A DNA stretch of 64,000 bases from an uncultured Gammaproteobacteria bacterium (GTDB lineage Bacteria; Patescibacteriota; Microgenomatia; JALYQM01), in assembly GCA_964403585.1 (NCBI GenBank), contig CAYOFQ010000001.1:204456-268455 (forward strand). Reading direction: 5' to 3'. Both the position numbers and the translations under genes were made by a program. Positions 36,465 to 56,330 of the stretch are shown here, in pieces. Numbering within the stretch: the first letter of the stretch is position 1; every line of letters starts with the position of its first letter. The notes beneath the pieces are model-generated. The model was given only the letters and a program-made list of their open reading frames with translations. It did no database searches and had not been told where the DNA came from.

Positions 36465-36471
36465 CTCCACA

Positions 36472-40398: not shown

Positions 40399-40444
40399 GC
40401 TACTTCAGTAGCTCAATAAGCAAACTGTATCAACAGAAAAAGGA

Positions 40445-40478
40445 AAAGCTCTTTAGCAATAAAGAGCTTTTTTTGTTG
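40445..40478 (+). terminator. rho-independent terminator
   Basis: Stem AAAGCTCTTT/AAAGAGCTTT with loop AGCAAT, followed by TTTTTTGTTG. Confidence 0.6.
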
Positions 40479-40524
40479 AAGCCGGCATAGTTTCTTGCTA
40501 TAGTAAAAGGGGAAGGATCCGATC

Positions 40525-41022
40525 ATGAAGAAGGGGATACTAATTATCGCAAGTCTGCTTGCATTAACGGCGTGCACCGGTAAGCAAGCCACACCATTAC
40601 CAGCTAATCCGACGACACTGAATAATCTTGGCAAGGTTTCACCTGTAGCGCAGGTAACCCCCGAAGATTTAATTCCCAAAAAGTTACCGCTAACATTCAA
40701 ACTCGAAGCTCAAAATAATTCCAATCAAAATGGCACGATAACCTTTGAAGAAATCGACGGAAAAGTTAATTACAAAATAAGTCTGGAAAACGCCTCCGGC
40801 GAGCAGGTACATATTCATAACGGTTCCTGCCCCACACCGGGAACAGTTCGCTACACGCTAAACTCGCTAACCAATGGAAAAGCTGAAGGGACACTTTCCG
40901 GCCGTATCAATTTAAGTGTCCTAAAAGATATGGGCCAAATGGCGGTCGACGCACACAAACCGAATCAAAAAACCACCGTCTCTTGTGGTAATGTCGACTG
41001 GAAAACCGCGATTAAAGGATAA
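40525..41022 (+). CDS. lipoprotein with CHRD-like domain (paralog of 39733-40398)
   Basis: Lipobox LALTACTGK; VHIHNGSCPTPGTVRYTLNSLTNGKAEGTL is paralogous to the HIH region of the upstream lipoprotein. Confidence 0.4.
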   Translation: MKKGILIIASLLALTACTGKQATPLPANPTTLNNLGKVSPVAQVTPEDLIPKKLPLTFKLEAQNNSNQNGTITFEEIDGKVNYKISLENASGEQVHIHNGSCPTPGTVRYTLNSLTNGKAEGTLSGRINLSVLKDMGQMAVDAHKPNQKTTVSCGNVDWKTAIKG

Positions 41023-41026
41023 AACG

Positions 41027-41098
41027 TACCCTCGGTAGGAATCGAACCTGCATCAACAGCTTAGGACGCCGCTGCTCTATCCGTTGAGCTACGAGGGC
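41027..41098 (-). tRNA. tRNA-Arg (anticodon CCU)
   Basis: Manual fold on the minus strand. It has a 7-bp acceptor, U8, D-arm GCTC/AACGGATA/GAGC, anticodon loop GTCCTAA (CCT) and T-arm GCAGG-TTCGATT-CCTAC, which is close to E. coli argW. CCA is not encoded. There is one T-stem mismatch and a G1-U72 wobble. Confidence 0.6.
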
Positions 41099-41724
41099 TT
41101 AAATAACTCTGATGAACGTATTCGTATCGCAGTTAGCTTTTTTAACAAAGGAGATCCTTTTAGAACCCGAACTCTGCACATACCATAAGGAAGTTTACCA
41201 CTTTTCTTACCTAACTTTACTTCTATTTTTGAAAATTTTTCTGGTGATACCCCTGTGATGGAAGACCAGAAAGCGATACATGATTCTTGATTCAAATCTT
41301 CAAAAACTCGAATACTAACTCGTATTCTATCATATGTAACCCCAAATACCTCTTGAATTCCAGTAATAAATACTTTGATCATGTTAGGGTCGCTATTCAT
41401 GAAATTTAAATCCTTTTTATTTCCCTCCGCCCAATAGAGTGCACTAAGGAAAATAAGTTTTCCTGTTAAGTCCAGATGAGAAATTACCGTTTCGGCTTCT
41501 TGTTTTGCCTTTAATTCGTCTTCCATCTTGCGTCTAATACTCCCGCCTCTTTTTTTATTCCATAGTTCTCTATATTCAGGTAAAATTTCCACACCTTTTA
41601 TATACCTAAAGACCGTTCCATGCCCAATACCTAGTTCTTTCTTTATTTCAGGTAGACTAAACCCTTTTGATCGCATATCTTTGATTTTTTCAATGACATT
41701 CTGATTGAGTTTTTGCTTTCCCAT
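41089..41724 (-). CDS. HTH-domain protein with LAGLIDADG-like endonuclease domain (putative homing-endonuclease-like)
   Basis: Resolvase-type HTH (GFSLPEIKKELGIGHGTVFRYIKG) then LSALYWAEG (LAGLIDADG-like with an acidic residue at position 8); 3' end overlaps the tRNA 5' end by about 10 nt; likely start at Met 41724. Confidence 0.35.
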   Translation of the reverse strand: MGKQKLNQNVIEKIKDMRSKGFSLPEIKKELGIGHGTVFRYIKGVEILPEYRELWNKKRGGSIRRKMEDELKAKQEAETVISHLDLTGKLIFLSALYWAEGNKKDLNFMNSDPNMIKVFITGIQEVFGVTYDRIRVSIRVFEDLNQESCIAFWSSITGVSPEKFSKIEVKLGKKSGKLPYGMCRVRVLKGSPLLKKLTAIRIRSSELFKPS

Positions 41725-41866
41725 AATACCAGAATAATAAATGGAAATAATAATAGCAATACTTAACAAGGACGCATTATCCATTAAAAAACTTGCTCTA
41801 AGAAAAAGTTAATGATATCATTGATATACTGTCTAATTACAACAATAGTATAAAAAAGGAGTTTAT

Positions 41867-42409
41867 ATGGCATCATTAACCACACTCAACGACCTCTTCT
41901 TGGAAGAATTACGGGATATCTACAGTGCTGAAACACAAATTCTTGAAGCGCTGCCTAAAATGGCTGAAAAAGCTACCACCGAAGAATTACGAGATGCCTT
42001 TGAAGAGCATCTCGAACAAACCAAAGAGCATGTAACCCGCCTTGAACAAATTTTTACCGATCTTGACCAAAGCCCAAAGGGCAAAACATGTAAAGGAATG
42101 CAGGGCGCGATCGAAGAAGGAGCCGAAATACTCAAAATGGACGGGAATCCCAGTGTTATCGACGCGGCCCTTATCGGTGCAGCTCAGCGAGTCGAACATT
42201 ATGAAATTGCCGCTTACGGAACAGCTGCCACGCATGCCGAACAGCTGGGATTGGATGATGCGAAAGATTTACTTGGTGAAACTCTCGATGAAGAGAAAGA
42301 AACCGACGAGAAGTTAACTGATATCGCCGAGTCCGCGGTTATTGAAGAAGAGATGGAAGAGGGTGCTGCTGAAGCTGATGATGACGAAGACGAAAACCAG
42401 ACCGAATAG
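41867..42409 (+). CDS. DUF892 family ferritin-like protein (YciE/YciF-like)
   Basis: LFLEELRDIYSAETQILEALPKMAEKATTEELRDAFEEHLEQTKEHVTRLEQIF matches the DUF892 consensus; acidic C-terminal tail; AAAGGAG RBS. Confidence 0.7.
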   Translation: MASLTTLNDLFLEELRDIYSAETQILEALPKMAEKATTEELRDAFEEHLEQTKEHVTRLEQIFTDLDQSPKGKTCKGMQGAIEEGAEILKMDGNPSVIDAALIGAAQRVEHYEIAAYGTAATHAEQLGLDDAKDLLGETLDEEKETDEKLTDIAESAVIEEEMEEGAAEADDDEDENQTE

Positions 42410-43342
42410 TTACGCTTTTTGTCGCATCTCCCAGTACTTCACATAGCTCGAAGCAATATGTAAGGCAGAATAAATGGCCCACACCAGCCCCGGGAAACCG
42501 TCCTTGTATCCGCCATGGCGGAAATACAGCGAGAGAAATGTGATTTTGGGAGCGATAACCATATAGTAAAAATGCGAGAAGAATGATATTCCCGGGGCTT
42601 TTGAATCGGGGCCAAGTAACCCAGACATACCGCTCTTACCGACATTTGCTAACCACTGCTTGGCTTGCAATGAAGTATAAAAATTCGACCGAGTTAAGTA
42701 ACGCTCAAATGCAGGATCTGCCATATGAATAAGATCATGAGAAAGAAACGAAACCTGCCCGTCAATCACCATTTGGTCATGCACATCTTTCAGACCGTAT
42801 TTCGCTCGACCGCGTCGAACTAAACGAATCGTCCCATCCGGATACACGCCACCATGCATGAGATATTTTCCGAGAAAGTAATTCTTGCGGGGCATAAAAA
42901 AAGCCGCAATCGGTCCGTCTTCAGTACCGATATGCCCCTCGCGGGCAATCAGAAGTTCCATATGTCGCTTTAATAGCTCATATCTCGTCGCATCAACATC
43001 ATGATTCTCAAGCTCTTTCTCTGAACTCTCCACAATCTTACGAATTTCCTGGCCCAGTTCGGGAGTTACCCGCTCATCCGCATCCAACTGTAAAATCCAT
43101 TCTCCACTTGAAGCATCCAGGGATTTTTGCTTATTAATATGGAAAACAGGAGGATTATCCGTTTCAATGACCTTCGCTCCGAAAGTTTTAGCTATCTCCA
43201 CAGTCGTATCCGAGCTCCCACCATCAACAATCACTATCTCATCGGCAATAGCCTTAACCGAGTCCAAACAATCCTTCAGATTGCTTTCCTCATTAAAAAC
43301 AGCCAGCGCCACAGTTAATTTGACCGGTTTAGTATCTGTCAT
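42410..43342 (-). CDS. glycosyltransferase family 2
   Basis: LTVALAVFNEESNL...IVIVDGGSSDTT...LQLDADE are GT2 DXD-type motifs. Confidence 0.7.
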   Translation of the reverse strand: MTDTKPVKLTVALAVFNEESNLKDCLDSVKAIADEIVIVDGGSSDTTVEIAKTFGAKVIETDNPPVFHINKQKSLDASSGEWILQLDADERVTPELGQEIRKIVESSEKELENHDVDATRYELLKRHMELLIAREGHIGTEDGPIAAFFMPRKNYFLGKYLMHGGVYPDGTIRLVRRGRAKYGLKDVHDQMVIDGQVSFLSHDLIHMADPAFERYLTRSNFYTSLQAKQWLANVGKSGMSGLLGPDSKAPGISFFSHFYYMVIAPKITFLSLYFRHGGYKDGFPGLVWAIYSALHIASSYVKYWEMRQKA

Positions 43343-43613
43343 AGCACAAAAATTGTACCACCTCTCAGCAATTATGTATAATAACCGAAAGAAGCGAAAC
43401 TTGTTCGCTTTTGCGCAGCTTTCTCAAACTTGTCACTAGCTGCGCAGATGAACTTTTTACGCAGCGAGGACTTCCGCTGGAGGTCGCTGTTTAGAAATAA
43501 GCGACCGAAACTATTATTATGTGCGAGTGAGTGAGCTAAAAGTCATTTAAGGAGCACGGACTGAGCATCCGCAGCAAGTAAAAAGGCATCAATCTAGCGG
43601 CAAAAAATATTTT

Positions 43614-44675
43614 ATGAAAATAGCCATCGACACCTCCCCCTTACACAACCTCAACGCCGCCCGCGGTGTCGGCATGTACACCCGGCAGCTCGTCGAAGGG
43701 CTGTCCAAACTAACCGACGGAAACGAGTACCTGCTGGTAAAAGATGAAGTCGAACTTCAAAAAATAAAACCGGATCTCATCCATTATCCTTTTTTCGACC
43801 TCTTCTTCCGCACCCTGCCTAAAAGAGGGGATCTACCGGTCGTAGTTACCGTGCACGACGTGACGCCATTGGTACTACCCGACCTGTTCCCGCCCGGAAT
43901 TCGGGGGAAAATTAAGCTCTATCTGCAAAAAAAGAATTTACAATCGGTGGACAAAATCATTACCGACTCCCAGTGCTCCAAAAAAGACATTGCCCGGTAT
44001 TTGGATATCCCGTTGGATAAGATTGAAACCGTTTATCTGGCTTGCGATCCGGTCTACCAGCGGGAAACAGACGCTCAAAAGCTGACCGATATCAAAACGA
44101 AGTACAATCTCCCGGAAAAATATATTGTGCGGGTAGGCGATATCAACAAACATAAAAACTTTCATGCCCTGTTTGACGCGTTAACCAGAACCGACCCGGA
44201 TATTCACCTGGTGCTTGTCGGCAAAGCGCTCGGCGAGGACGCACCCATGATCGCCGAACTGCAGGAGATAGTCGAAGATATTCAAAACTTCAGTTTACAA
44301 AAACGGGTTCACAGGCTGGGCTTTGTACCCACTGAAGATATGTCAGCCATCTATACTGCAGCCCGGGCAACTATGCATAATTCATTGTATGAAGGATTTG
44401 GGTTAACTGCTCTAGAGTCCCTGCATTGTGGCACGCCTGTGATTGCCGGGGATACCGGAAGCCAGCCGGAAATTGTCGGTAACGCCGGATTACTCGTCAA
44501 TCCTTACGACGTAAACGAAACAGCCGGTGCTATTGAAGAAATATTTGCGTTTGACGAAGCAGTCTATAAAACATTACAAGAAAAAAGCATACAGCAAGCT
44601 AAAAAATTCTCGCTTGAAAAAATGACTCAGGAAACAGTCGATGTCTATGAATCTCTCCAAAGAAACCGTAATTAA
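43614..44675 (+). CDS. glycosyltransferase family 4
   Basis: EX7E region EGFGLTALESLHCGTPVIAGDTGSQPEIV. Confidence 0.7.
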   Translation: MKIAIDTSPLHNLNAARGVGMYTRQLVEGLSKLTDGNEYLLVKDEVELQKIKPDLIHYPFFDLFFRTLPKRGDLPVVVTVHDVTPLVLPDLFPPGIRGKIKLYLQKKNLQSVDKIITDSQCSKKDIARYLDIPLDKIETVYLACDPVYQRETDAQKLTDIKTKYNLPEKYIVRVGDINKHKNFHALFDALTRTDPDIHLVLVGKALGEDAPMIAELQEIVEDIQNFSLQKRVHRLGFVPTEDMSAIYTAARATMHNSLYEGFGLTALESLHCGTPVIAGDTGSQPEIVGNAGLLVNPYDVNETAGAIEEIFAFDEAVYKTLQEKSIQQAKKFSLEKMTQETVDVYESLQRNRN

Positions 44676-45999
44676 AATTGTCAAACATCCATTTTTTCAG
44701 GGAAGCGCCATTGCTTTTGTCGGATCTTTTGGCGTCAATGCCTTGAGCTATCTGTACAACGTCGTCATCGGTCGAATGCTGGGCGTTGTCGGATACGGTG
44801 AATATTTATCGTTGGTTTCAATTTTATATATCGCTTCTGTGCCATCAAATGTTTTGGGCACTGTCGTAACTAAATATACTGCAATTTTCTCTTCCCATAA
44901 TGAAAATCTGAAGATAAAATCCATGCTTATTAAGATGACTCAGTATTCGTTCATTTTTTCCCTGGCATTTATTCTCATTCTGACTCTATTTCAGAATCAA
45001 ATTATAGCGCAGCTAAAACTAAACCAGTTTTTATCATTGTTTTTAATTGGCCTTATATACACCTTTTCGTTTCCGCAGACAATTTTAAACGGGGCTTTTA
45101 CCGGCTTACAAAAGTTCGTCGCGGCCAGTGTCTATGGAGCAATACTGGTGTCGGTACGAATTATCTTAGCGGTACTTTTTATACTCCTCGGGCTCTATGT
45201 CAATGGAATTCTCTACAGCATGATTCTTTCCGCCATCATGGTCGTTCTTTTATCCTGGATCTCAATCTCCAATAGCATCGACGGAACAAAATTTTCCGTA
45301 CAGCAAAGTCTGCTGCAAGTCGGAGAATTTATCAAAGGAATAATAACGTTTTCACCACAAGCCACGCAGGGACTGATGCTTAATAAGGAATTACTCACCT
45401 TTGCAATGTTCACTGCCTTCAATAACTGGGGACTGGGTAGTTTAGTGCAAACAGACATTATCCTGGCTAAGGCATTTTTAAGCCCATACGATGCCGGGTT
45501 GTACTCTTCACTCGCAATTACCTGCAAAGTTATTCCGTTTTTTACACAACCCCTGGTCATAGTTATGTTCCCGCAAATTGTCCAGCGGGTTGCACAGAAA
45601 AAAAACTTCATGCCGTTATTTGCGGCCGTACTCGGAGTTGTAACACTAGGTGCCGGTTTCGTTACCGCAATATATATATTCTTCCCCCAATTGGTCATTA
45701 CCTTACTGTTCGGAAAAAAATTTCTGGAAGCTGCACCGTATATTGGAATCTTTAGTCTTGCTCAAATGGCCTATGCCATTCTTAACGTCTTCTCTTTCTT
45801 TTTCCTTTCCATCGGGAAAAATAAAACTGCGTCGTTGGTGCTGATTGCTGCAGTAATTCAGGCAATCGGTATTCAACTATTCCATAGTTCCTTAACTCAA
45901 ATTATTATGGTATCAATAGTAGTGATAGGTGGCTGCGTTGCGCTCTATGCGGCGCTAACACTGCAATTCTATTTCAAAACACAAACGCAAAAAGTATGA
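44641..45999 (+). CDS. MOP/PST-family flippase (Wzx-like polysaccharide biosynthesis protein)
   Basis: 452 aa with about 12-14 TM helices and a Wzx/MurJ-like layout; sits between glycosyltransferase genes with overlapping start/stop. Confidence 0.55.
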   Translation: MSMNLSKETVIKIVKHPFFQGSAIAFVGSFGVNALSYLYNVVIGRMLGVVGYGEYLSLVSILYIASVPSNVLGTVVTKYTAIFSSHNENLKIKSMLIKMTQYSFIFSLAFILILTLFQNQIIAQLKLNQFLSLFLIGLIYTFSFPQTILNGAFTGLQKFVAASVYGAILVSVRIILAVLFILLGLYVNGILYSMILSAIMVVLLSWISISNSIDGTKFSVQQSLLQVGEFIKGIITFSPQATQGLMLNKELLTFAMFTAFNNWGLGSLVQTDIILAKAFLSPYDAGLYSSLAITCKVIPFFTQPLVIVMFPQIVQRVAQKKNFMPLFAAVLGVVTLGAGFVTAIYIFFPQLVITLLFGKKFLEAAPYIGIFSLAQMAYAILNVFSFFFLSIGKNKTASLVLIAAVIQAIGIQLFHSSLTQIIMVSIVVIGGCVALYAALTLQFYFKTQTQKV

Positions 46000-46772
46000 A
46001 AATTTCTGTAATTATTCCCGCCTACAGACAACAAAAGACCATCATCGAAGACATGGGACACGTGCAGGATGTCCTTGAGCAGTTGCGTTACGACTACGAA
46101 ATGATTATCGTAAACGACGGAAGTCCGGACAAAACGTATGAGAAATTACAGGAATTCCACGACGAATATGCTAAACCGAAATCAAAAGTAAAAATTCTCA
46201 CGTATAGTAAAAATAGGGGAAAAGGGTACGCGGTACGCTATGGCATTTCTAAAGCCACCGGAGAATATATCGCGTTTATTGACTCGGGAATGGATTTAAA
46301 TCCCAACGGCCTATCCATGTTAATCGAACACCTCGAATGGTATAAAGCGGATATTGTAGTCGGATCCAAAAGACACCCCGCGTCGAAAGTAGAGTACCCG
46401 TTCCTACGCCGCGCCTACAGTTTTGGCTATCAGATGATGTGTGCCATACTTTTTGGGTTGAATGTAAAAGATACCCAGACCGGAATGAAAATTTTCAAAA
46501 GAGAAGTACTTGAGCGGGTTATGCCCCGCATGCTCATCAAAGCCTTTGCTTTTGACATTGAAATGCTCGCTGTAGCTCATCACCTGGGATTCACAAAGAT
46601 CTATGAGGCTCCTGTCGAGTTGCGCCACGATTTCACTAACACCAGTATTAATAAAAAAGTCGTGTTCAATATGCTCTGGGATACGGTTGCAGTGTTTTAT
46701 CGCATGCATATACTGCATTATTACGACGAAAGTAATAAAGAAAACTGGTTACAAAACCAGTTTGAAGAATAA
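45996..46772 (+). CDS. glycosyltransferase family 2, polyprenol-phosphate sugar synthase-like (DPM1/GtrB/ArnC-like)
   Basis: ISVIIPAYRQQKTI...IIVNDGSPDKT...FIDSGMD in a compact 258 aa soluble GT2. Confidence 0.65.
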   Translation: MKISVIIPAYRQQKTIIEDMGHVQDVLEQLRYDYEMIIVNDGSPDKTYEKLQEFHDEYAKPKSKVKILTYSKNRGKGYAVRYGISKATGEYIAFIDSGMDLNPNGLSMLIEHLEWYKADIVVGSKRHPASKVEYPFLRRAYSFGYQMMCAILFGLNVKDTQTGMKIFKREVLERVMPRMLIKAFAFDIEMLAVAHHLGFTKIYEAPVELRHDFTNTSINKKVVFNMLWDTVAVFYRMHILHYYDESNKENWLQNQFEE

Positions 46773-46773
46773 T

Positions 46774-47889
46774 ATGAACATTCTCTGGTTATCATGGAAA
46801 GATCCTACTCACCACGACGCCGGCGGCGCTGAAATTTCGGGTGAACAGCACGCTATTGCCTGGACCAGAGCCGGTCACCATGTCCACTGGGTAAGCATTA
46901 ATTATCCGGGCAGTCAGTCTACGGTAGTCAAAGATGGCGTCGAGTACGAACACGTCGGCCAAAAATGGATGTGGTTTCTGGGGCTTATTCATCTTTTTTT
47001 CTGGTTTAAATGGGTAACACACTGGAAGAATCGGTATGACCTGATTGTGGATGAAATACACGGGCCACCACTCCTGACGCCATTATATATTCGAAAACCC
47101 AAACTGGTAATTATTCACGAAGTGGCGGGAGATATCTGGAAAAAAACAGTGCCGTTCCCGATAAGCTGGATAATGCAATATTGTGTCGAGCCGCTTTTCT
47201 TTAAAGCGTACACAGATGTTCCCATCATCGCCGGTGCACAAACGACAATTGACGACCTTAAAAAAATAGGCATACCTGAGCAAAATATTCATTTCATCCC
47301 GTACGGGGTTACTATCCCGCAACAGAAGCAAACCTTTCCGAAGGAAACACAACCTACGCTTGTATTCCTCAGCCAGCTCCGTCCGATGAAAGGCTTTGAT
47401 CGTGTCTACGAGGGATTTAAAAAAATACAGCAAACTATTCCTGATGTTAAGTTATGGGTGGTAGGCGACGATAGTCTTCCGTATGGCCAGGAAATGAGAC
47501 AAAAAGTACTTTCAGAGCAAAAAAATGAGAACGTAACATTTTTTGGGAAAGTAAGTCAGGAGAAAAAATTCGAGTTGTTACAGCGTGCCCACGTTTTAGT
47601 GCACGGTTCATATAAAGAGGGCTGGGGGCTGGTGGTTATCGAAGCCAACGCAGTAGGCACTCCATCGGTTGTGTATGACGCTGCCGGGCTGCGCAACAGT
47701 GTGCACCACGCAGTCACCGGGTACATTGCCAAAAATACCGAGGAGTTCGCTCAGTATGGTATACTGCTCCTCGGTAATCAAACCACTTATGAGCAATTTC
47801 AACAGCACGCGAAAGAGTGGAGTGCTCAGTTCTCCTGGGAATCTGCCACCAGAGCTTCGCTCGAATGTATTGCCCAAATCACCAACTAA
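46774..47889 (+). CDS. glycosyltransferase family 4
   Basis: EGWGLVVIEANAVGTPSVVYDAAGLRNSV EX7E motif; start at Met 46774, 2 nt after the upstream stop. Confidence 0.65.
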   Translation: MNILWLSWKDPTHHDAGGAEISGEQHAIAWTRAGHHVHWVSINYPGSQSTVVKDGVEYEHVGQKWMWFLGLIHLFFWFKWVTHWKNRYDLIVDEIHGPPLLTPLYIRKPKLVIIHEVAGDIWKKTVPFPISWIMQYCVEPLFFKAYTDVPIIAGAQTTIDDLKKIGIPEQNIHFIPYGVTIPQQKQTFPKETQPTLVFLSQLRPMKGFDRVYEGFKKIQQTIPDVKLWVVGDDSLPYGQEMRQKVLSEQKNENVTFFGKVSQEKKFELLQRAHVLVHGSYKEGWGLVVIEANAVGTPSVVYDAAGLRNSVHHAVTGYIAKNTEEFAQYGILLLGNQTTYEQFQQHAKEWSAQFSWESATRASLECIAQITN

Positions 47890-47952
47890 CTATTCCATCT
47901 TTTCAAAAAAATATAGTATGCTATTTCTACAAGTATAGGCTATAGAACCACT

Positions 47953-50844
47953 ATGTTATTTAAACTTCGCGCATATAAGCACTATTTGTTTATTGTCCTC
48001 GCACTGGTCATGATGGGAGGATCTACACCGGCATCAGCCCAGGGGTCAATGACTGCTGAAAACCACGGTGAAGTCCGGATGTTTACGACCGTCCGCATCT
48101 TAAAAAACAATGCTCCGTTGCCAAAAGCCGATGTGGCTTTTGCCAATCAAAGCCGCACTACCGATCAACAGGGCTTTGCGACATTTGAAGACATTCATAC
48201 GGGGCAGTATCCGGTTAAGGTTTACTATAATGGCATTACCTATGATAACTCAATCAAAGTTCAAAATGCGCCATTAACAATTGATGTGTCCAAGAACGGT
48301 CCGTTTTCCCTGGATTCCGGACTGATGATGTTGTCTATACTTATCGCGGCTGCATTAATCATCGCTCTGGCAATTTATAACAATAATCAGGCCAAGCGTG
48401 CGAGTATTCAACCACAAACCAGCACCCGCAAATTAGCCTTTGGTGCACTGGTTTTTGTCCTGGTCTTAGCATTCATCATTACTATTGCAACGTACCAGAA
48501 CAACATCATCGCCGCATTATTTAATGCCAATAATGCCAATCAATCACTCGCCGCTGAACTGGACACAATTCCCAAGCCAACCAACGTTAAAATCTATGGC
48601 GATGACCGGGTGGCAACCGTAACCTGGACACCCGTGTCCGGTAGCAATGTGGTTGGATACGTTGTCAAATGGGGCAAAGAGAGTATTGGATCCTTTACCG
48701 ATATGAAACAAACGATCCACCCGATCACGCAAATCCAGCCACTGGAAAATGGCGTTAAATACATCGTCCAGGTCCAGTCGGTGCAAGGCAGCTATACCTA
48801 CAAACCAACCAGTAGTGAGCAGGGAGGCAATGATAAATTCGCTACTGCTAACGGCAACGTTTCCTTGCCGGTTGTCGCTAGCGTTATACCGACCAGTCAA
48901 CGCGTCGATTCTATGCGCAAAAGGCTCACCGGATTTTTTGACGATATGAACATCTCTGCCGGCGGTTTTGATGAAACGAAATGGAACCATGCCGTCAATG
49001 CCTGCGTCGCCGTTGGAGAGGACGGACAGTTTATAAATAGCCAACTACACGGACATAATATGACAGCCTCCGGGTTTTGTGACCGGGGTGGTACCGTATC
49101 GCGGGCGCGGGGAGTATTCGACATCACCGGACGCACCGAAGCCGATCCTGGAGTAATTGAATTTGATATCGACGGTGTATCACAACCGCGCGATGTCTGG
49201 TACATCGACCTTATTCCGACCGATGCCCGCAAAAACGGCATCCCGGTTGACGTAACCAGTCACAATGACCTTTTTGACGCCGATAGCGCCGATCCCGGGA
49301 GAATGATTCGTATCGCGCAATTACAAAACGGCACCGCCTCGTTAAATTTTCATTACTTTGGAGTAACTAATCAACCGGGGTCATTTGGATCGGCCAATCT
49401 CAATGTTAATATGGCGACTAAAACTCCCGGTTATGAATTTATGTCACCGGTAAACTTTCCCGTAGATACCGTTATTCCGAACGTCCGCCGGCACTGGAGA
49501 ATTGAATATTCACCAACCAAGTTAAAGGTATATATCGATGCCGTTAAAGTTGGCGAAGGAACAGTTCCGTCACTATTTGCCACTATTAAAAAATATCATG
49601 TACATTCAACACTTTTCTCGTACAATACGGGTAAACAATTCGACACGGTCGGCCCAACCACATCAATGTTGCACTGGGATAATTTTGGATTCAACGGCCC
49701 GGCACCAACGCTCGTTACTCACAATTATCTTGATGGTGGACCAACCGGCACAACGCCATTATTGGCCAGAGGAACCAAATCTGCACCCATCCCAACCGGC
49801 AACCGGACAACCAAAATTCCAATCCCTGATCCGATCGGAACTCCGGTAGGTAAAGTCCGCTTAATGTATACAGCACAACCATTCGGCTATAGTTATTATT
49901 ACTGGAATGTAAATAATTCAATTACGGTGAATGGTAAAAAATACAGTGTGCCGGATCCCCAACAGAATATACAGACGAGCGTATCTAAGGATAACGTCTC
50001 CATGACTAATATTCCGCACGCCACCGGTATTTATATTGAACCTGCCGACATCAAACAGGGGATGAATGAAATATCCTTCAACCTTAACACCGATATTCTA
50101 AACGTTCATCTCGAAGTGGACTATGAAAATAACAACGCACCGAACTATACGCAACCCAAAGATGTTTTTGCGAACTTCACCGGCTACGTTACACCACCGA
50201 TGAATGCTAACGATGCCTACTGGTTTGTTGAGCAAAAGATGGGCTTAGAAAATTTAGCAAACCCCGGAGCCTCACTGCCTCCAACTCCATCAACGACACC
50301 TGCCGCATCAGGCACTCCTCAGGCGACTCAGACACCAAGTCCATCTCCAAGCAGAACTCCGAGCCCAATACCGGCTACAGACACGCCTGCTCCAATAGTA
50401 GCTTCAACCCCAACACCTTCACCACTCTCCAGCAGTAGCACTGGGTCTGTCCTGACTATTTATGCTGCCGGAACTCCGGCTCGCGGAATCTATCCAACCT
50501 TAGTATTGAATATTAATAACAATGGTACGCGGACCAACGTTGCAACCTTTACCAACGTCAACGGCAATCCGAATTCCGGTCAATTCAACACCTTTACTTA
50601 TAAATCAAATACAGAACTCGTACCAGGCCAGATCCGGGTACGATTTACCAACGATTATTACAATCCCCAAACCGGTGAAGATCGTAATGTCCGGATTAAC
50701 AAGATCAGTATCGACGGTCAGGAGTATCTTAGCTCTACGCCTTCAGTTTATTCAACCGGTACCTGGGCGGCTTCCAACGGGTGTGCAGCCGGATATAAGC
50801 AGTCGGATTGGCTGATGTGTAACGGGTACTTTCAGTATAAGTAG
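47953..50844 (+). CDS. large cell-surface protein (signal peptide, CarboxypepD_reg-like domain, 2 TM segments, FN3 domain, Pro/Thr/Ser-rich linker, C-terminal CBM-like domain)
   Basis: Signal peptide MLFKLRAYKHYLFIVLALVMMGGSTPASAQGS; FN3 region PTNVKIYGDDRVATVTWTPVSGSNVVGYVVKW; low-complexity PPTPSTTPAASGTPQATQTPSPSPSRTPSPIPATDTPAPIVASTPTPSP; C-terminal beta-sandwich-like GQIRVRFTNDYYN...RNVRINKISIDGQEY. Confidence 0.55.
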   Translation: MLFKLRAYKHYLFIVLALVMMGGSTPASAQGSMTAENHGEVRMFTTVRILKNNAPLPKADVAFANQSRTTDQQGFATFEDIHTGQYPVKVYYNGITYDNSIKVQNAPLTIDVSKNGPFSLDSGLMMLSILIAAALIIALAIYNNNQAKRASIQPQTSTRKLAFGALVFVLVLAFIITIATYQNNIIAALFNANNANQSLAAELDTIPKPTNVKIYGDDRVATVTWTPVSGSNVVGYVVKWGKESIGSFTDMKQTIHPITQIQPLENGVKYIVQVQSVQGSYTYKPTSSEQGGNDKFATANGNVSLPVVASVIPTSQRVDSMRKRLTGFFDDMNISAGGFDETKWNHAVNACVAVGEDGQFINSQLHGHNMTASGFCDRGGTVSRARGVFDITGRTEADPGVIEFDIDGVSQPRDVWYIDLIPTDARKNGIPVDVTSHNDLFDADSADPGRMIRIAQLQNGTASLNFHYFGVTNQPGSFGSANLNVNMATKTPGYEFMSPVNFPVDTVIPNVRRHWRIEYSPTKLKVYIDAVKVGEGTVPSLFATIKKYHVHSTLFSYNTGKQFDTVGPTTSMLHWDNFGFNGPAPTLVTHNYLDGGPTGTTPLLARGTKSAPIPTGNRTTKIPIPDPIGTPVGKVRLMYTAQPFGYSYYYWNVNNSITVNGKKYSVPDPQQNIQTSVSKDNVSMTNIPHATGIYIEPADIKQGMNEISFNLNTDILNVHLEVDYENNNAPNYTQPKDVFANFTGYVTPPMNANDAYWFVEQKMGLENLANPGASLPPTPSTTPAASGTPQATQTPSPSPSRTPSPIPATDTPAPIVASTPTPSPLSSSSTGSVLTIYAAGTPARGIYPTLVLNINNNGTRTNVATFTNVNGNPNSGQFNTFTYKSNTELVPGQIRVRFTNDYYNPQTGEDRNVRINKISIDGQEYLSSTPSVYSTGTWAASNGCAAGYKQSDWLMCNGYFQYK

Positions 50845-50846
50845 TG

Positions 50847-51605
50847 TTATAACTTTCCCTTTTTACTCCAGTAGTGGGTATGAGCAAGCGAGAATGCACC
50901 GTCAACGGTGAGTGTTTGACCAGTTATATATTTAGCCTTATCACTGGCCAGGAAGACCATCGCTTCACCAATATCTTGGGGTGTTCCCAAATGCCCAACC
51001 GGCACGTGCGCAGACTTTCTATCCTGCAGTGCCCAGATATCTATTGCTCCTGGTGCCACTGCATTCACACGGATACCGAATTCAGCCAATTCTAGAGCAG
51101 TCTCCCGGACAAACATTTCTAATGCGGCCTTAGAAGAAGAATATGCCGGACGCATCATTGTAATTCGTGCATGCGTGGAAGACGTAAACAGAATCGATCC
51201 GGGTTTCTTGCGGGCAATCATTTCCCGCGCTGTTCGCTGCGAAAGAAAATACGGCCCAAGCACATTAGTCAGAAAAATCTTTTGCACATCGGAATAGGTA
51301 GCATCAAGGAGCGACGTATCCTGAAAATACCCGGCATTATTAACGAGAATATCCAGTGACGAGTATTTCTCCAGGATCCGGTCAACCAGCAGATCATTTT
51401 GTTCCTGGGAACTGATATCGGATTTCATTGCCACACAATCGAGTCCCTGTTTAATAAATTCACGCTCTGTTTTAAGCAGGTTTTCAGAGTCAATGTCACA
51501 TAAAACTACGGTTGCCCCGGCCTGAGCCATTTCCAGCGCAATGCCACGTCCAATTCCTTTCGCCGCACCGGTAATCAGAGCTATTTTTTGTGCAAGTTCT
51601 TTCAT
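50847..51605 (-). CDS. SDR family oxidoreductase
   Basis: IALITGAAKGIGRGIA Rossmann motif; NNAG; YSSSKAA catalytic motif. Confidence 0.7.
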   Translation of the reverse strand: MKELAQKIALITGAAKGIGRGIALEMAQAGATVVLCDIDSENLLKTEREFIKQGLDCVAMKSDISSQEQNDLLVDRILEKYSSLDILVNNAGYFQDTSLLDATYSDVQKIFLTNVLGPYFLSQRTAREMIARKKPGSILFTSSTHARITMMRPAYSSSKAALEMFVRETALELAEFGIRVNAVAPGAIDIWALQDRKSAHVPVGHLGTPQDIGEAMVFLASDKAKYITGQTLTVDGAFSLAHTHYWSKKGKL

Positions 51606-51652
51606 AAAGTCATTCTAACACATACATAGCAACAATGATAAAATAATAGCCA

Positions 51653-52699
51653 ATGATGACCTTTTCCATAATCATTCCCACACTCAATGCCAAACGAACA
51701 CTGGAAGAATGCCTGCAGCATCTTACTCAACAGAACTATCCGAAAGAACAATTTGAAATAATTAGCGCCGACGGCGGATCAACCGACGGAACTTTAGAAA
51801 TATTGCAAAAATATAATGTCAAAATTATCTCCAATCCGCTAAAGACCGGCGAGGCGGGTAAAATGGCCGGATTAAAGGCTGCGCAAGGGAAGTTCGTCGT
51901 TTTTCTCGATTCTGACAACATTTTAGTTGACCGGGATTGGCTAACTAAAATCGAAAAACCGTTTGAAGATCCGGATATTGTAGCATCCGAGTCACTTTAT
52001 TTTGTGTGCCGGAAAACAGACAACGCTCTAACCAGATACTTCGCTCACTTAGGTATGGGCGATCCAATTAATCTTTTTTTAAAAAACTACGACCATATTT
52101 CTGCCATTACCAACACCTGGACATCACTGAATATCCCTGCGGAACAGAAATCCGGGTATCTGAAAATACAATTAATTAAAGATCAGCCACTTCCTACAGT
52201 TGGGGCTAACGGTTTTGCGGTCCGTCGGGACTTACTTGCTCCGCTATTAAAGGATGATTATCTTTTTGACGTTGATGTAATTAAATTACTCATGAATACA
52301 AACAATAAATCATGTGTCATGGCCAAAGTGGACACCGGACTGGTGCACTTGTTTTCACCAGACATCAAAACATTTATCCGCAAACAACAACGAAGAATAC
52401 GTGATTATTTATATTATCAGGCCAAAAACTTACGGGTTTCCCAGCCAACCAATAATATTCTCATGCGCGTACTGTATCCGGGAGGTCCAACCTTTACCTG
52501 GTTGTTGGTTTTCATGGCTGCCTGCATTACCGTAATTCCGCTTATTGTACAGGCACTTATCGGTTTTGTGCGCAAACCGGATTGGGTATGGATACTGCAT
52601 CCATTGCTGTGCGAAATAACGCTCTTTGTGTATACAACCGAGCGGCTTAAAAGTTTTTTCAAAAAAGGCATTTATGATCGGTCAAAATGGAGTCAGTGA
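51653..52699 (+). CDS. glycosyltransferase family 2 with C-terminal TM region
   Basis: FSIIIPTLNAKRTL...IISADGGSTDGT...VVFLDSDN GT2 motifs; hydrophobic C-terminus. Confidence 0.65.
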   Translation: MMTFSIIIPTLNAKRTLEECLQHLTQQNYPKEQFEIISADGGSTDGTLEILQKYNVKIISNPLKTGEAGKMAGLKAAQGKFVVFLDSDNILVDRDWLTKIEKPFEDPDIVASESLYFVCRKTDNALTRYFAHLGMGDPINLFLKNYDHISAITNTWTSLNIPAEQKSGYLKIQLIKDQPLPTVGANGFAVRRDLLAPLLKDDYLFDVDVIKLLMNTNNKSCVMAKVDTGLVHLFSPDIKTFIRKQQRRIRDYLYYQAKNLRVSQPTNNILMRVLYPGGPTFTWLLVFMAACITVIPLIVQALIGFVRKPDWVWILHPLLCEITLFVYTTERLKSFFKKGIYDRSKWSQ

Positions 52700-52733
52700 A
52701 GTAATTCTATAATTGTCTGCCAAAGGAGTTCAA

Positions 52734-53459
52734 ATGTTTAGTTACGAACAAGTATTCAAAAATAAACAACGTGTTGTTTTCTTTATGGCGCACCCCGACG
52801 ATGTTGTGGTATTTTACGGGGCACTGATCAATAAACTCCGCCGGGACAAAAAAGACGTCTACGTGGTAACCGTAACCAATGGCGCCCGTGGCAGCCGCGA
52901 TAACGAAGTTACCGAAAACGATTTGGCTAAGGAGCGAATCGAAGAAGAAGTCAGCGCACTTGAATATCTCAACGTTCCCAAAGAGAACTTTATCTGCTTA
53001 AATTTCAAAGACGGCGAAGTCGAAAGCAATTACGCTCTCATTGGGGAAATCGCCCGGTATATCCGTAAATATAAAGCTGATGTTGTGTGTACACACGAAC
53101 CAACAATCATATACACCGAGACATACGCCAAGGACGGTTTCTTTGTCCAACACCGTGACCATCGGAAAGTTGCCGAAGCCGTAGTCGATGCGGCGTATCC
53201 GTTCTCGCGTGACCGGTCCTTTTTCCCGGAACACGCCAAAGAGGGAATTGAGCCGCATACAGTTATGGACATCATTATGACTGATGAAGCGGGGAGTAAC
53301 TTCGAAATTGACTACACCGACGATGTTGAAACCAAGCGCCGGGCACTTCTATTACATAAAAGCCAAATGAATGAAGAGTTTGTGAATGAAGTGCTTGATG
53401 CAGTAAAATTTGAAGATCGCTATCTGGAAAAATATTATTACGTTAATCTTTTATGGTAA
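52734..53459 (+). CDS. PIG-L/LmbE family N-acetylglucosaminyl deacetylase
   Basis: VVFFMAHPDDVVVFYGALI is the metal-binding HPDD motif of PIG-L/MshB/BshB-like deacetylases; AAAGGAG RBS. Confidence 0.7.
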   Translation: MFSYEQVFKNKQRVVFFMAHPDDVVVFYGALINKLRRDKKDVYVVTVTNGARGSRDNEVTENDLAKERIEEEVSALEYLNVPKENFICLNFKDGEVESNYALIGEIARYIRKYKADVVCTHEPTIIYTETYAKDGFFVQHRDHRKVAEAVVDAAYPFSRDRSFFPEHAKEGIEPHTVMDIIMTDEAGSNFEIDYTDDVETKRRALLLHKSQMNEEFVNEVLDAVKFEDRYLEKYYYVNLLW

Positions 53460-53464
53460 TAACT

Positions 53465-53836
53465 ATGTCAAACAATAATAAAATCTCTACCGGGAATGCC
53501 TTAGTAGAAGGACAGGATCGACGAGGCTGGTATGTTGGAGCTTTCATTGAGCCTGAGGGAGCACTACAGCACAACGCCGATGTCGAAATCAAATGGGGAA
53601 TACACCCCAAAGATGAGCAGCGCTCGAGCAAGGCCGGAGAAGGCAATGCGACCACAATGTCGGTTCTTATTAGAGGAAAGTTTGGGATTACCTTTAAAGA
53701 TCAGGAAGAAATTGTACTGGAAAAAGAAGGCGATTATGCCATTTGGAATCCTAATATCCCGCATGAAACTATAGCCTATGACAATTCGGTAATTTTAACA
53801 GTTCGGTGGCCGTCACTTTCAGCCGCAAAAAACTAA
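53465..53836 (+). CDS. small cupin-like protein
   Basis: 123 aa, beta-rich sequence with H..H/E pattern; weak assignment. Confidence 0.3.
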   Translation: MSNNNKISTGNALVEGQDRRGWYVGAFIEPEGALQHNADVEIKWGIHPKDEQRSSKAGEGNATTMSVLIRGKFGITFKDQEEIVLEKEGDYAIWNPNIPHETIAYDNSVILTVRWPSLSAAKN

Positions 53837-53837
53837 T

Positions 53838-54704
53838 ATGACCTGGTTTCTACTTGCCATCTGCTCAGTCTTTGCACTCGCTCTTGGTGAGCTCATGCAG
53901 CAGCACCTCCTGCATTTTAAGAATCAGTTCAGCGAACGCACCAGTGCCGTGTTAACGTTTCTTTTTCAGTCACTACTTACCGCACCGGTCATTCTGTTTA
54001 GCCCTTTAAGAAGCCAACTCTTCGCTCTGTTCCAGCCGGGTCTGTTTCCGCGCGTTTTGATTGTAACCTTTATCGCGTCTATCGCCATGATTTTTTATCT
54101 GCGAAGTTTTAAGGTTAAAAATATCAGCATCTCGGCTATTTTCGTATCGTTTTCCACCGTTATCTCTACCAGTTTGGGAATCATCTTCTTTCACGAAAGT
54201 TTGGATCCCCCCAAGTTTCTTGGGATAGGGCTCATATTAGGAGCAATTATCAGTCTCAATCTAAAAAATATCCATTTGGAAAAAAATCATTTCTATGGAC
54301 TGCTAGCCGGAATAATGTTCGGTGTAACATACTCTCTGGATAAAAGTATTCTTATAACCGGAATCCACCCGCTTATCTATGTTTTCTGGGCATTTATGTT
54401 AGTTCCTGTATTCGGGTTCCTTTTTAGCATCAAGGAAGTTATAACTAATCTGCAGGGGAAGAAATTAACTGACTTTAAATCTATCTACATCTCCGGATTC
54501 GGCTATTTTATCTACAATCTCTGTACGTTTTTCGCCTATCGGCTGGGGGGAGAGGTTGGTCGAATTGATGCCATTAATAACTCCCAAATTTTTCTTATCA
54601 TTCTCTTTGAATACTTCATCCTGAAGCATCAGGATGCCTTGCTCAGAAAAATTGTTACCGCCGCCATCGCCTACACCGGAGTCGTTATTTTAGGGCTAAC
54701 CTAA
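53838..54704 (+). CDS. DMT superfamily (EamA-like) transporter
   Basis: 288 aa with 10 predicted TM helices in a 5+5 arrangement. Confidence 0.5.
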   Translation: MTWFLLAICSVFALALGELMQQHLLHFKNQFSERTSAVLTFLFQSLLTAPVILFSPLRSQLFALFQPGLFPRVLIVTFIASIAMIFYLRSFKVKNISISAIFVSFSTVISTSLGIIFFHESLDPPKFLGIGLILGAIISLNLKNIHLEKNHFYGLLAGIMFGVTYSLDKSILITGIHPLIYVFWAFMLVPVFGFLFSIKEVITNLQGKKLTDFKSIYISGFGYFIYNLCTFFAYRLGGEVGRIDAINNSQIFLIILFEYFILKHQDALLRKIVTAAIAYTGVVILGLT

Positions 54705-55433
54705 GTCCGAGAGATAAATAGTATCGCCCACCTTCACTGTACCTTCAAGAACAATACTGCAGTAAATACCAAAATTCTTGCCATGCTCCCTCACTAACGT
54801 TTTAAGAATTTCCGGATTCATTTCTCCTGTTTTGGGGTCCATATTAATCGTGGTACAGCGCTTATCTAATTTAACTGCCACGATGCGGGCACTGTCTTCA
54901 CGATCACCAAATGTCAAAATTTTTCCGAGCCATGATTCTTCTTCATACGGCGCATTAGATGCGGTTTCAACCAGAATATTCATCCGAAATCGTCTCGGAT
55001 CAACCGGCGCACTCAGTTTAGAACTTAATTCATTCAGTGAACCAAGGCTCAACAGGGACACCGGCATGCTATGGTAACCCCCACGCCCCATCCGCACGAC
55101 AGTAAGTTTGCGGCCGGATTTTTCCGAAATTTCGTGCAGCAATTCTTGACTGTCTGCGGGGTAATCATTGCCTTTCGGTGTCCGTACACGCAGTTCGGAA
55201 GTTTTTGGATCTTCAGGAGAAACCAGATACGGAGCATAGCCAAGTAGTCCGGGGTACTTAATCGTATCCAAGAACGTCGGGGTTTCATTTGTATCCAGAA
55301 TATCAAATTTACGGGTGCGGTCTCCGAGTACGGATACCGACTTTAATACAATCTCCGGTAGCTCCACCCCTTGCATGCCCTTAAAAGGATAGATAGTTGT
55401 CTGGGTAACAGTCCCTGCGGCTACTCGTGACAT
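54696..55433 (-). CDS. MOSC domain protein (YcbX-like)
   Basis: MOSC N-terminal beta-barrel-like IYPFKGMQGVELPEI and MOSC-like RFRMNILV...RCTTINMDPKTGE. Confidence 0.5.
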   Translation of the reverse strand: MSRVAAGTVTQTTIYPFKGMQGVELPEIVLKSVSVLGDRTRKFDILDTNETPTFLDTIKYPGLLGYAPYLVSPEDPKTSELRVRTPKGNDYPADSQELLHEISEKSGRKLTVVRMGRGGYHSMPVSLLSLGSLNELSSKLSAPVDPRRFRMNILVETASNAPYEEESWLGKILTFGDREDSARIVAVKLDKRCTTINMDPKTGEMNPEILKTLVREHGKNFGIYCSIVLEGTVKVGDTIYLSDLG

Positions 55434-55469
55434 GCTAAGAGTATACACTATAGCTGGTATAATAGGGGT

Positions 55470-56330
55470 ATGAACAAGTCTCAATTTTCTGAATTAACCG
55501 TCGGTCCGGTAGAATTAAACATCAATAACAGCGAGGTAATGAAAAAATTTTATACGCATATCCTGGGTTTTACGGTTCTCAGTGAAGATGGGAGCACGAT
55601 AAAATTAGGGAAAAATTCAATACACTTGCTGACCTTCCATCAAAATAAAACGCTAAAATCGGCGCATCCGACCGAAGCCGGCCTCTATCACTTTGCCATT
55701 CTATACGCCTCACGGGCAGAATTAGCACGAACTATTCAAAACGTCTTAAAAAATGCCCCACATCATTTTTCGGGATCGGGTGACCACCTCGTTTCCGAGG
55801 CTTTTTATTTTTATGACCCTGAAGGAAATGGCATTGAATTATATTTCGACCGGGATCGCTCAAAATGGCAATGGGAAAATAATCAGGTCAAAATGGCCGC
55901 GCTATACATTGACCCGGCCGAATATATCCATGCCAATATGGTCGTTGAGGACCAAAACACCACTGTCAAAATGGGCCACATCCACTTAAAAGTAGGTGAT
56001 ATTAAAAAAGCCAAAGCATTTTATGTAGATATTGTGGGCTTTGAAGTAACAGCACAGTTACCGGGAGCACTATTCATCTCAGTTGGAGGATATCATCACC
56101 ACATTGGCTTAAATACCTGGGAAAGCTATGCAGCTGAAGAACGTAATGAAACCTTAGGCTTAAAAAGCTATGACCTGATTATTCCCAATCAGACCGAGAT
56201 CGACCAGCTGATTGAGAGATTAAAAATAAATAAGATACCTTTTTCTACCGAAGACAAGTATATTACTTTTTACGATCCCTGGAAAAATCAAATACGAATT
56301 AAAGCCAATGAAAAAAATCGTAATTCCTAA
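55470..56330 (+). CDS. VOC family protein (two glyoxalase/bleomycin-resistance/dioxygenase domains)
   Basis: Two repeats of the paired beta-alpha-beta-beta-beta module (FYTHILGFTV...; FYVDIVGFEV...) with His/Glu metal ligands. Confidence 0.6.
   Translation: MNKSQFSELTVGPVELNINNSEVMKKFYTHILGFTVLSEDGSTIKLGKNSIHLLTFHQNKTLKSAHPTEAGLYHFAILYASRAELARTIQNVLKNAPHHFSGSGDHLVSEAFYFYDPEGNGIELYFDRDRSKWQWENNQVKMAALYIDPAEYIHANMVVEDQNTTVKMGHIHLKVGDIKKAKAFYVDIVGFEVTAQLPGALFISVGGYHHHIGLNTWESYAAEERNETLGLKSYDLIIPNQTEIDQLIERLKINKIPFSTEDKYITFYDPWKNQIRIKANEKNRNS

Follow-up and report, generated by a model that had tools for sequence, protein, structure and literature searches.

The locus described here lies in a 64,000-nucleotide stretch of DNA (the window) from an uncultured member of the Patescibacteriota (contig CAYOFQ010000001.1), and it joins genes for cytoplasmic glycosyltransferases (GTs) and a MOP-family transporter to an array of membrane-embedded GT-C enzymes. 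The open reading frames (ORFs) of the window were listed with their translations, and gene starts were compared with the gene calls on an identical Logan metagenome contig. The genes on which the argument turns are the following.

21225-38103: GT-C array, eight PMT/PMT_2 ORFs and one ORF with 10 transmembrane segments and without Pfam match
42410-43342, minus strand: GT2a, Pfam Glycos_transf_2 at 65.3 bits
43614-44675, plus strand: GT4a, Glycos_transf_1 at 103.1 bits and Glyco_transf_4 at 42.3 bits
44641-45999, plus strand: MOP transporter, MOP fold by AlphaFold2 and Foldseek; gene callers begin it at 44647, two codons into the ORF
45996-46772, plus strand: GT2b, Glycos_transf_2 at 102.5 bits, 258 aa
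46774-47889, plus strand: GT4b, Glycos_transf_1 at 119.6 bits
51653-52699, plus strand: GT2c, Glycos_transf_2 at 89.2 bits, 348 aa

An earlier note on this DNA had placed three GT2 genes, two GT4 genes and one flippase gene between 42410 and 53459, and both the ORFs and the Pfam or fold matches agree with that. Glycos_transf_2 scored above its gathering score in 3/3 GT2 genes, as did Glycos_transf_1 (gathering score 26.4) in GT4a and GT4b. The overlapping starts and stops that had been reported also agree with the junctions read from the sequence. The MOP ORF starts upstream of the GT4a stop, giving an overlap of 35 nt (29 nt with the callers' start), the ATGA at 45996-45999 is common to the end of the MOP gene and the start of GT2b, and one base lies between the GT2b stop at 46772 and the GT4b start. 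The longest ORF of GT4b begins at 46603, and the gene callers on the identical contig choose 46774. Scans of 41000-55000 for promoters (31 vs 28.8 in shuffled sequence) and terminators (13 vs 13.4) were uninformative on operon structure.

Among the three GT2 proteins of the locus, GT2b is, as judged from alignments, the sole credible polyprenol-phosphate sugar synthase. Its best solved relative in a PDB search was the Pyrococcus furiosus DPMS (5mlz), with E-values of 4.4e-20 for the single sequence and 3.9e-23 for a profile built from a 40-member family, and the next matches were GtrB (5EKP, 1.3e-18) and ArnC (6.4e-13). The alignments to these three reach about 177 of 270 positions and thus cover both the nucleotide half and the acceptor half, whereas chondroitin synthase, TarS and other GT2 structures align with GT2b only to about position 110, which is the nucleotide-binding half. 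GT2 proteins that act on undecaprenyl diphosphate (Und-PP), such as PglI, likewise gave alignments that stop short of the acceptor half, unlike those to DPMS, GtrB, ArnC, PpgS and AglJ. The NCBIfam matches that run past residue 175 were PgfS, ArnC, PpgS, AglJ and a haloarchaeal dolichyl-phosphate hexose transferase. The top one, PgfS, scored 68.8 bits against an equivalog cut-off of 500 bits, and since all of these matches fall far below their cut-offs the likeness appears to be one of family and not of orthology.

GT2b has two unusual features. A hydrophobic-segment scan found zero transmembrane segments in it, and the overlapping MOP gene is its sole conserved membrane neighbour that could serve for anchoring. 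In addition, the motif D96-[AS]-G98-M-[DE]100 stands where the canonical DXD is expected; among the 40 orthologues position 98 is Gly in 36 and Asp in 4, while D96 is invariant and position 100 is always Asp or Glu. Two further motifs, KDTQxGxK and AFD[IV]ExL, are invariant in the family and are, we presume, ALG5-like. Human DPM1 and PpgS are synthases that lack transmembrane segments and act with partners. A further precedent is GacI, a cytoplasmic GT-A enzyme that works with the membrane partner GacJ (PMC8035078).

The transporter encoded next to GT2b is, on modelling, a Wzx/PST-type MOP protein and a candidate flippase for lipid-linked sugars. The window protein itself scores 22.2 bits against Polysacc_synt (PF01943), under the gathering score of 28.2; 12 of the 13 members of its family match this profile at E<=0.01 (best 1.4e-11), and none of the 13 matches the MatE or MurJ profiles. 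In Foldseek its AlphaFold2 model (pLDDT 87.1) matched PfMATE (6fhz, TM-score 0.70), WzxE (9g9p, TM-score 0.68/0.74) and MurJ (0.56-0.66); WzxE is the lipid III flippase. The family profile found zero matches among PDB sequences even at E<=1, so that fold comparison alone is informative here. Together, the MOP fold and the family matches to Polysacc_synt agree with the earlier placing of this protein in the Wzx/MOP family, with flipping as its putative function.

To place these genes in context, relatives of GT2b were sought in one genome per GTDB species. The search returned more than 500 relatives, and the best 80 loci were kept with 10-kb flanks and annotated with hidden Markov models built from the window proteins; the GT2b orthologues in them share more than 50% identity and come from Microgenomates and WWE3. 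Orthologues of the window proteins as a whole come from metagenome-assembled genomes (MAGs) of Microgenomates, Daviesbacteria, Woesebacteria and WWE3. The results showed a MOP gene directly upstream of GT2b on the same strand in 62/78 loci, with the MOP stop overlapping the GT2b start or lying at most 10 nt from it in 52/64. GT4a lies upstream of this pair in 45/72 loci, GT2a lies further upstream, between the GT-C genes and GT4a, in 32/63, and GT4b lies downstream of GT2b in 46/69, with p651 (a membrane protein gene described below) between the two in 9/69. At least one PMT_2-type GT-C gene (orthologues of GTC2/GTC9) was found within 10 kb upstream of GT2b in 31/58 loci as compared to 1/53 within 10 kb downstream. 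The arrangement is not due to chance, because the same gene order recurs in the relatives, and the asymmetry between the two sides, with orthologues at 52-62% identity, argues for selection on linkage. The tie between the GT block and the GT-Cs that the earlier note had proposed is thus upheld, as GT4a, MOP, GT2b and GT4b are linked with PMT_2 genes across Microgenomates.

The typical Microgenomates order is two to four GT-C genes, GT2a, GT4a, a gene that we call X, MOP, GT2b, in some cases p651, and GT4b, in some cases followed by a short-chain dehydrogenase/reductase (SDR) gene, GT2c and GT4c. X encodes a PIG-V-like GT-C of about 380 aa with 9 transmembrane segments (7-10 predicted), which in locus L019 (L019:7563-8714) matches PF04188 at 41.7 bits. 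It stands between GT4a and MOP in most Microgenomates relatives (L019, and also L012, L023, L033, L043, L049, L056 and L076). No homologue of X was found in the window, from which it appears to have been lost, and therefore the GT4a/MOP overlap there probably marks the deletion of X. The window is a rearranged form of the common plan in three other ways, as GT2a is inverted, about 4.3 kb of unrelated genes (38149-42409) lie between the last GT-C gene and the block, and two insertions, described below, have entered the cluster. In L009, a relative at 75% identity, GT4a, MOP, GT2b, SDR, GT4b and GT2c are contiguous. The evolutionary unit is the MOP-GT2b pair, which in Microgenomates is set within a larger block of GT-C and other GT genes.

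The same comparison bears on the possibility that the two groups of genes are adjacent and share no function, so that the GT/flippase block would produce a glycan of its own, such as a capsule or a teichoic-like polymer, and the GT-Cs would act separately with donors from elsewhere. The unrelated genes and the inverted GT2a between array and block in the window would fit such an arrangement, as would the WWE3-type loci that have MOP-GT2b and no GT-Cs. However, the GT-Cs, GT2a, GT4a, MOP and GT2b are contiguous and co-directional in 26/58 loci, often with the PIG-V-like GT-C embedded among them, and the GT-Cs keep to the upstream side. We consider mere adjacency quite improbable.

Our results instead suggest, with slightly better than even confidence, that Microgenomates conserve a glycan-assembly locus of which the interval forms the cytoplasmic and flipping half, with GT2b, the Wzx-type MOP protein and the GT-Cs acting in that order. 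The family and fold assignments, the gene overlaps and the conserved synteny are observed; the substrates, the direction of flipping, the acceptor and the use of the GT2b product by the GT-Cs are what we infer. At the inner face of the membrane, GT2b would move a sugar from a nucleotide sugar onto polyprenol phosphate, and the MOP protein, whose gene overlaps GT2b, would flip the lipid-linked sugar. The PMT_2-type GT-C paralogues, and in relatives the PIG-V-like GT-C as well, would then use the flipped sugar outside the membrane on a protein or cell-wall acceptor. The five other enzymes, GT2a, GT4a, GT4b, GT2c and GT4c, would depend on nucleotide sugars and work on the cytoplasmic side, not as donor synthases; their role may be to lengthen the GT2b product to a short lipid-linked oligosaccharide, or else to make a lipid-anchored primer for the GT-Cs to elongate. 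All three component types, the GT-A enzyme (GT2b), the flippase (MOP) and the GT-Cs (PMT_2), are present in the window and genetically linked.

Several points weigh against this pathway. GT2b lacks transmembrane helices and in 36/40 orthologues has Gly for the second Asp of the DXD, and given both of these its chemistry could differ. The usual cargo of Wzx proteins is an oligosaccharide linked through a diphosphate, and the 1.57-Mb genome could encode a priming enzyme at another site. Loci labelled WWE3 and Saccharibacteria retain the MOP-GT2b pair only, without GT-Cs nearby. Finally, the 80 loci are related, so that the synteny counts are not independent events.

The earlier note had assigned all three GT2 genes to the polyprenol-phosphate-sugar-synthase type. 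This holds for GT2b, with its likeness to DPMS, GtrB and ArnC over both halves, and fails for GT2a and GT2c, which classify elsewhere. GT2a (310 aa) groups by sequence with soluble GT-A enzymes of the GmaR/SunS type and appears to carry a conserved C-terminal helical extension. Its Glycos_transf_2 match is confined to residues 11-110, and a profile of 31 orthologues run against the PDB placed GmaR (2.8e-23) and SunS (6.5e-17) on top; DPMS (2.8e-9), GtrB (1.3e-5) and ArnC (1.8e-4) matched only the N-terminal ~100 residues. GmaR and SunS are cytoplasmic protein or peptide glycosyltransferases, and zero transmembrane segments were found in GT2a. Inverted in the window, its gene is co-directional with the cluster in most relatives.

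GT2c models as a membrane-anchored GT2 with a minimal cellulose-synthase-like fold, not a DPM1/GtrB-like one. The AlphaFold2 model (pLDDT 91.9) shows a GT-A domain, an interface helix and C-terminal membrane helices at 281-334. PcManGT (6yv7, TM-score 0.52) was its top Foldseek match, followed by BcsA and HAS, with TM-scores of ~0.5; ArnC came at rank 15 (TM-score 0.41), and DPMS and GtrB fell outside the top 50. PcManGT is an archaeal mannosyltransferase described as 'minimal cellulose-synthase-like'. A profile search of the PDB agreed with this ranking, since DPMS, GtrB and ArnC matched the N-terminal nucleotide-binding half only. The invariant residues D86-S-D88, D206 at the start of a helix and R243/K244/R247 on the interface helix would fit a transferase acting on a sugar hydroxyl, with D206 placed where the general base for such an acceptor would be. 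GT2c has only two or three membrane helices, and therefore a polysaccharide channel cannot form.

These assignments bear directly on the view that all three GT2s are polyprenol-phosphate sugar synthases, supplying three donors to nine GT-Cs in a self-contained locus. It can draw on the shared GT2 family, on the C-terminal membrane helices of GT2c and on a weak N-terminal similarity to DPMS and AglJ in all three proteins. Against it, GT2a is closest to GmaR and SunS and has no transmembrane segment, GT2c has the folds of PcManGT, BcsA and HAS, an invariant D206 and neither DPMS nor GtrB in its top 50, and the likeness of both to DPMS, GtrB and ArnC is limited to the nucleotide-binding half. We hold this view to be very improbable indeed. 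The result is also a warning for annotation, as a GT2 gene next to GT-C genes is not by that fact a donor synthase; here one of three qualifies.

Two side observations concern GT2c. Its family shares 46-50% identity with equally long proteins from MAGs labelled Bathyarchaeia and Archaeoglobales, which suggests cross-domain transfer or strong conservation. Its homologue in locus L007 (L007:6001-6999) adjoins a Polysacc_synt flippase, an epimerase and a GT4.

The components that could complete a pathway were looked for with Pfam scans that took in the ORFs of 150 aa or more at the locus and near it, with several small ORFs between 300 and 12000 left out. Among these scanned window ORFs there was no priming phosphoglycosyltransferase (Bac_transf, Glycos_transf_4), no GtrA, ArnE/F-type small flippase or STT3/AglB, and no gene for nucleotide-sugar or polyprenol synthesis; neither was a phosphoglycosyltransferase among the Pfam lists returned for the relatives' loci. 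Small ORFs with at least three transmembrane segments, as expected of a GtrA-type flippase or a GacJ-like partner, occur only at 8968-9960 and 19525-19869, and Pfam, run on 9493-9960 alone, gave no match. Next to GT2b no GacJ-like small membrane partner was found, and Wzy_C and Wzz had no match in the window. The locus had been called complete and self-contained, for which we see no support in 64 kb whose scanned ORFs hold no phosphoglycosyltransferase, no GtrA-type flippase and no genes for nucleotide-sugar or polyprenol synthesis. It had also been called periplasmic, a doubtful word for a cell of the candidate phyla radiation (CPR), which is probably monoderm, and 'extracytoplasmic' is safer.

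With a phosphoglycosyltransferase encoded elsewhere, the genes could also serve an ordinary Wzx/Wzy pathway. In that case undecaprenyl phosphate would be primed by the distant enzyme, all six GT2 and GT4 proteins, GT2b included, would extend an Und-PP-linked repeat unit, the MOP protein would flip this unit, and the neighbouring proteins with many transmembrane segments would be polymerases or ligases, or unrelated. The flippase belongs to the Wzx/Polysacc_synt family, many cytoplasmic GTs stand in one co-directional block, the DXD of GT2b is atypical, and one Wzy_C protein is encoded near the GT2b orthologue of a Daviesbacteria locus (L004), all of which agree with such a pathway. On the other hand, a phosphoglycosyltransferase was found neither among the scanned ORFs of the window nor in the annotated loci of relatives, and the alignments of GT2b to DPMS, GtrB, ArnC, PpgS and AglJ enter the acceptor half, unlike those to the Und-PP-acting PglI. 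The linked membrane enzymes belong to PMT_2 and PIG-V, two families in which the characterised members take polyprenol-monophosphate sugars as donors, and conservation is highest for the MOP-GT2b pair, not for MOP with the full set of GTs. We regard the Wzx/Wzy pathway as possible and yet unlikely, and prefer the route from GT2b through the MOP protein to the GT-Cs.

A more specific form of the preferred route can be conceived, in which GT2b, translationally coupled to the Wzx-type flippase, primes an oligosaccharide linked to polyprenol monophosphate without any phosphoglycosyltransferase; GT4a, GT4b, GT2a and GT2c would extend it, the flippase would move it and the PMT_2 and PIG-V GT-Cs would receive it. 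We put this forward as a speculation that is rather unlikely. If it is true, bacteria would have here a pathway laid out in the manner of the archaeal Agl or eukaryotic dolichol pathway and unlike bacterial Und-PP pathways, and a surface protein of the cluster with a Ser/Thr/Pro-rich linker and a CBM60 domain could be an acceptor.

The closest precedents are the 'multi-component transmembrane glycosylation systems' of Gram-positives, which combine a cytoplasmic GT-A, a Wzx protein and a GT-C; in Streptococcus pyogenes GacI, GacJ, GacK (Wzx) and GacL attach the GlcNAc side chain to the group A carbohydrate (PMC8035078). As in the Gac system, the proposed pathway has a GT-A enzyme that makes a C55-phosphate-linked sugar and may lack transmembrane helices of its own, a flippase of Wzx and not GtrA type, and a GT-C acting outside. 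Unlike in Gac, no GacJ-like small partner stands next to GT2b, the start of GT2b overlaps the flippase gene, up to nine GT-C paralogues take the place of one, five further cytoplasmic GTs are present and the host is a CPR bacterium. In Haloferax volcanii, AglJ, AglG, AglI and AglE act on dolichyl phosphate, with AglG, AglI and AglE extending the AglJ product, and AglD, AglR and AglS join a Wzx-type flippase to a lipid-phosphate-monosaccharide synthase and a GT-C (PMC3871713). The parallels are that the start of a monophosphate-linked glycan, or the synthesis of dolichyl-phosphate mannose, falls to a DPM1-like GT2, that Wzx-like proteins (AglR, Agl15) are implicated in flipping, that a PMT_2-like GT-C (AglS) uses the flipped monosaccharide donor, and that a phosphoglycosyltransferase is not needed. 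The locus differs in its bacterial host, in the failure to detect an oligosaccharyltransferase of AglB/STT3 type in the window and in the predominance of GT4s in the extension steps.

Streptococcus mutans Pgf consists of PgfS, the GT-Cs PgfM1 and PgfM2 and the epimerase PgfE (bioRxiv 10.1101/2024.05.05.592596; PMC5856776), and streptococcal systems of GtrB/PgfS with a GT-C (PgtC2) O-glycosylate surface proteins in disordered regions rich in Ser/Thr (bioRxiv 10.1101/2024.05.05.592596). Pgf resembles the present locus in having a GT-A with several GT-Cs, and here a secreted protein with a Ser/Thr/Pro-rich linker is encoded in the cluster. The differences are that GT2b is not a PgfS equivalog and has none of the C-terminal transmembrane helices of GtrB; protein O-glycosylation is conjecture here. 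The logic of a lipid-phosphate-sugar synthase, a flippase and a GT-C is also that of GtrA/GtrB/GtrC, CsbB/GtcA/YfhO and ArnC/ArnEF/ArnT; unlike in these, no small flippase of the GtrA family or ArnE/F type was found in the window and the synthase has no transmembrane segments. In mycobacterial lipomannan and lipoarabinomannan synthesis the GT4s PimA and PimB' make the primer, the GT2 Ppm1 makes the donor, and many GT-C mannosyl- and arabinosyltransferases elongate outside. The likeness is that cytoplasmic GT4s would build a lipid-anchored primer, one DPM1-like enzyme would supply the polyprenol-phosphate sugar and GT-C paralogues would elongate; the difference is that sequence orthology is absent beyond the family level.

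As the parts all belong to known families and their logic matches described systems, the locus is not categorically new. What is new is a candidate synthase, ALG5/DPM1-like and lacking transmembrane segments, with an altered DXD and a start that overlaps a Wzx gene; also new are that no partner of GacJ or GtrA type was found, that the setting amid several GT-C paralogues and five cytoplasmic GTs is conserved, and that the spread in the CPR is wide. The CPR/Patescibacteria, uncultured organisms with tiny genomes, rely on contact of their cell surface with hosts, and their envelope glycans are essentially uncharacterised; a literature search for GT-C or polyprenol glycosylation systems in them found nothing specific. 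The more than 500 GT2b relatives among species representatives point to a putative lineage-wide pathway of surface glycosylation. With GacK as the first, the pairing is the second case in bacteria of a Wzx-type protein, and not GtrA, beside a candidate lipid-phosphate-sugar synthase, and it bears on the question of what Wzx proteins can flip. The conserved locus is a testable gene set, whose MOP-GT2b core is flanked by several GT-Cs, GT2a, GT4a and the PIG-V-like gene and, on its opposite side, by GT4b.

The remaining genes of the region are listed below, the last two of them outside the interval of the earlier note.

47953-50844, plus strand: CBM60 protein, 963 aa, CBM60 at 59 bits and fn3 at 28.3 bits
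50847-51605, minus strand: classical SDR oxidoreductase, adh_short_C2 at 192.9 bits
52713-53459, plus strand: PIG-L family de-N-acetylase, PIG-L at 95.1 bits
58562-59719, plus strand: GT4c, Glycos_transf_1 at 113.5 bits
59716-61671, plus strand: p651, without Pfam match

GT4a and GT4b are, by sequence, assigned as cytoplasmic GT-B (GT4) glycosyltransferases. Searches of the PDB with them gave generic GT4 relatives only and no clue to the acceptor, with PimB' (3oka) at 5.6e-6 and 4e-8 for GT4a and GT4b, respectively. GT4c and p651 are conserved partners of the cluster. The p651 protein has a signal peptide, a ~470-aa extracytoplasmic domain, two transmembrane helices and a C-terminal domain; its gene follows GT4c in the window, and in L010 GT2c, GT4c and p651 follow one another directly. 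GT2c is contiguous with GT4b in L009. In close relatives the SDR gene accompanies the cluster, standing between GT2b and GT4b in L009 and ahead of GT2c in L010; its product probably modifies a sugar.

The interval had been treated as one set, a view that does not extend to the CBM60 protein and PIG-L within it, as both are lineage-specific insertions. The CBM60 protein has an fn3 domain, a C-terminal CBM60 domain, a Ser/Thr/Pro-rich linker of about 55 residues and two hydrophobic segments, and is predicted to be exported or membrane-anchored; an orthologue is present in L010 and absent from L009. By conjecture, its linker is a candidate O-glycosylation acceptor. The second insertion runs from PIG-L through EamA to an AlkZ-like gene (52713-57479). 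Within it, the genes for PIG-L, a 127-aa protein without family match and an EamA transporter with 10 transmembrane segments (52713-54704, plus strand) overlap in the manner of a small operon, and this group is not kept beside the GT cluster in relatives. We also considered GT2c, PIG-L and EamA as an analogue of ArnC, ArnD and ArnEF that would make a lipid-phosphate-HexNAc, deacetylate it and flip it. This was rejected, as GT2c is not ArnC-like and the block of PIG-L, 127-aa protein and EamA is absent in relatives, where GT2c leads directly to GT4c and p651.

The GT-C array itself is real, and of the nine GT-Cs that had been counted upstream, eight are ORFs matching PMT/PMT_2, with one (32805-34874) below the cut-off; the ninth (31280-32836, minus strand) has 10 transmembrane segments and no Pfam match. 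The array GT-Cs have 7-11 transmembrane segments each. At 29549-31279 (plus strand) a PMT_2-type GT-C is split into ORFs of 333 and 238 aa by an in-frame TGA at 30548-30550; the joined length equals that of the 575-593-aa paralogues, and the gene could be a pseudogene, a sequencing error or a case of stop-codon read-through. The sub-cut-off ORF (minus strand, 689 aa) combines a GT-C-like N-terminal part with 9 transmembrane segments (PMT 18.9 bits) and a penicillin-binding protein dimerisation (pedestal) domain (PF03717, 46.5 bits), and this fusion hints at a link to the peptidoglycan synthesis machinery. Like the ninth array ORF, 62249-63748 (minus strand) lacks a Pfam match; the two have 8-10 transmembrane segments and may represent additional divergent enzymes of GT-C or Wzy-like type. 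The Daviesbacteria locus L046 has an orthologue of 62249-63748 at 4 kb downstream of GT2b. Directly after the last GT-C, 38149-39660 (plus strand) encodes a FAD-dependent amine-oxidase-like oxidoreductase with a weak match to UDP-galactopyranose mutase. Acting with the SDR of the cluster, this enzyme could work on a sugar or on a lipid-linked one, for example in a DprE1/DprE2-like epimerisation. Its position is kept in close relatives (L010), a distant homologue is present in L009 and the linkage is weak beyond close relatives.

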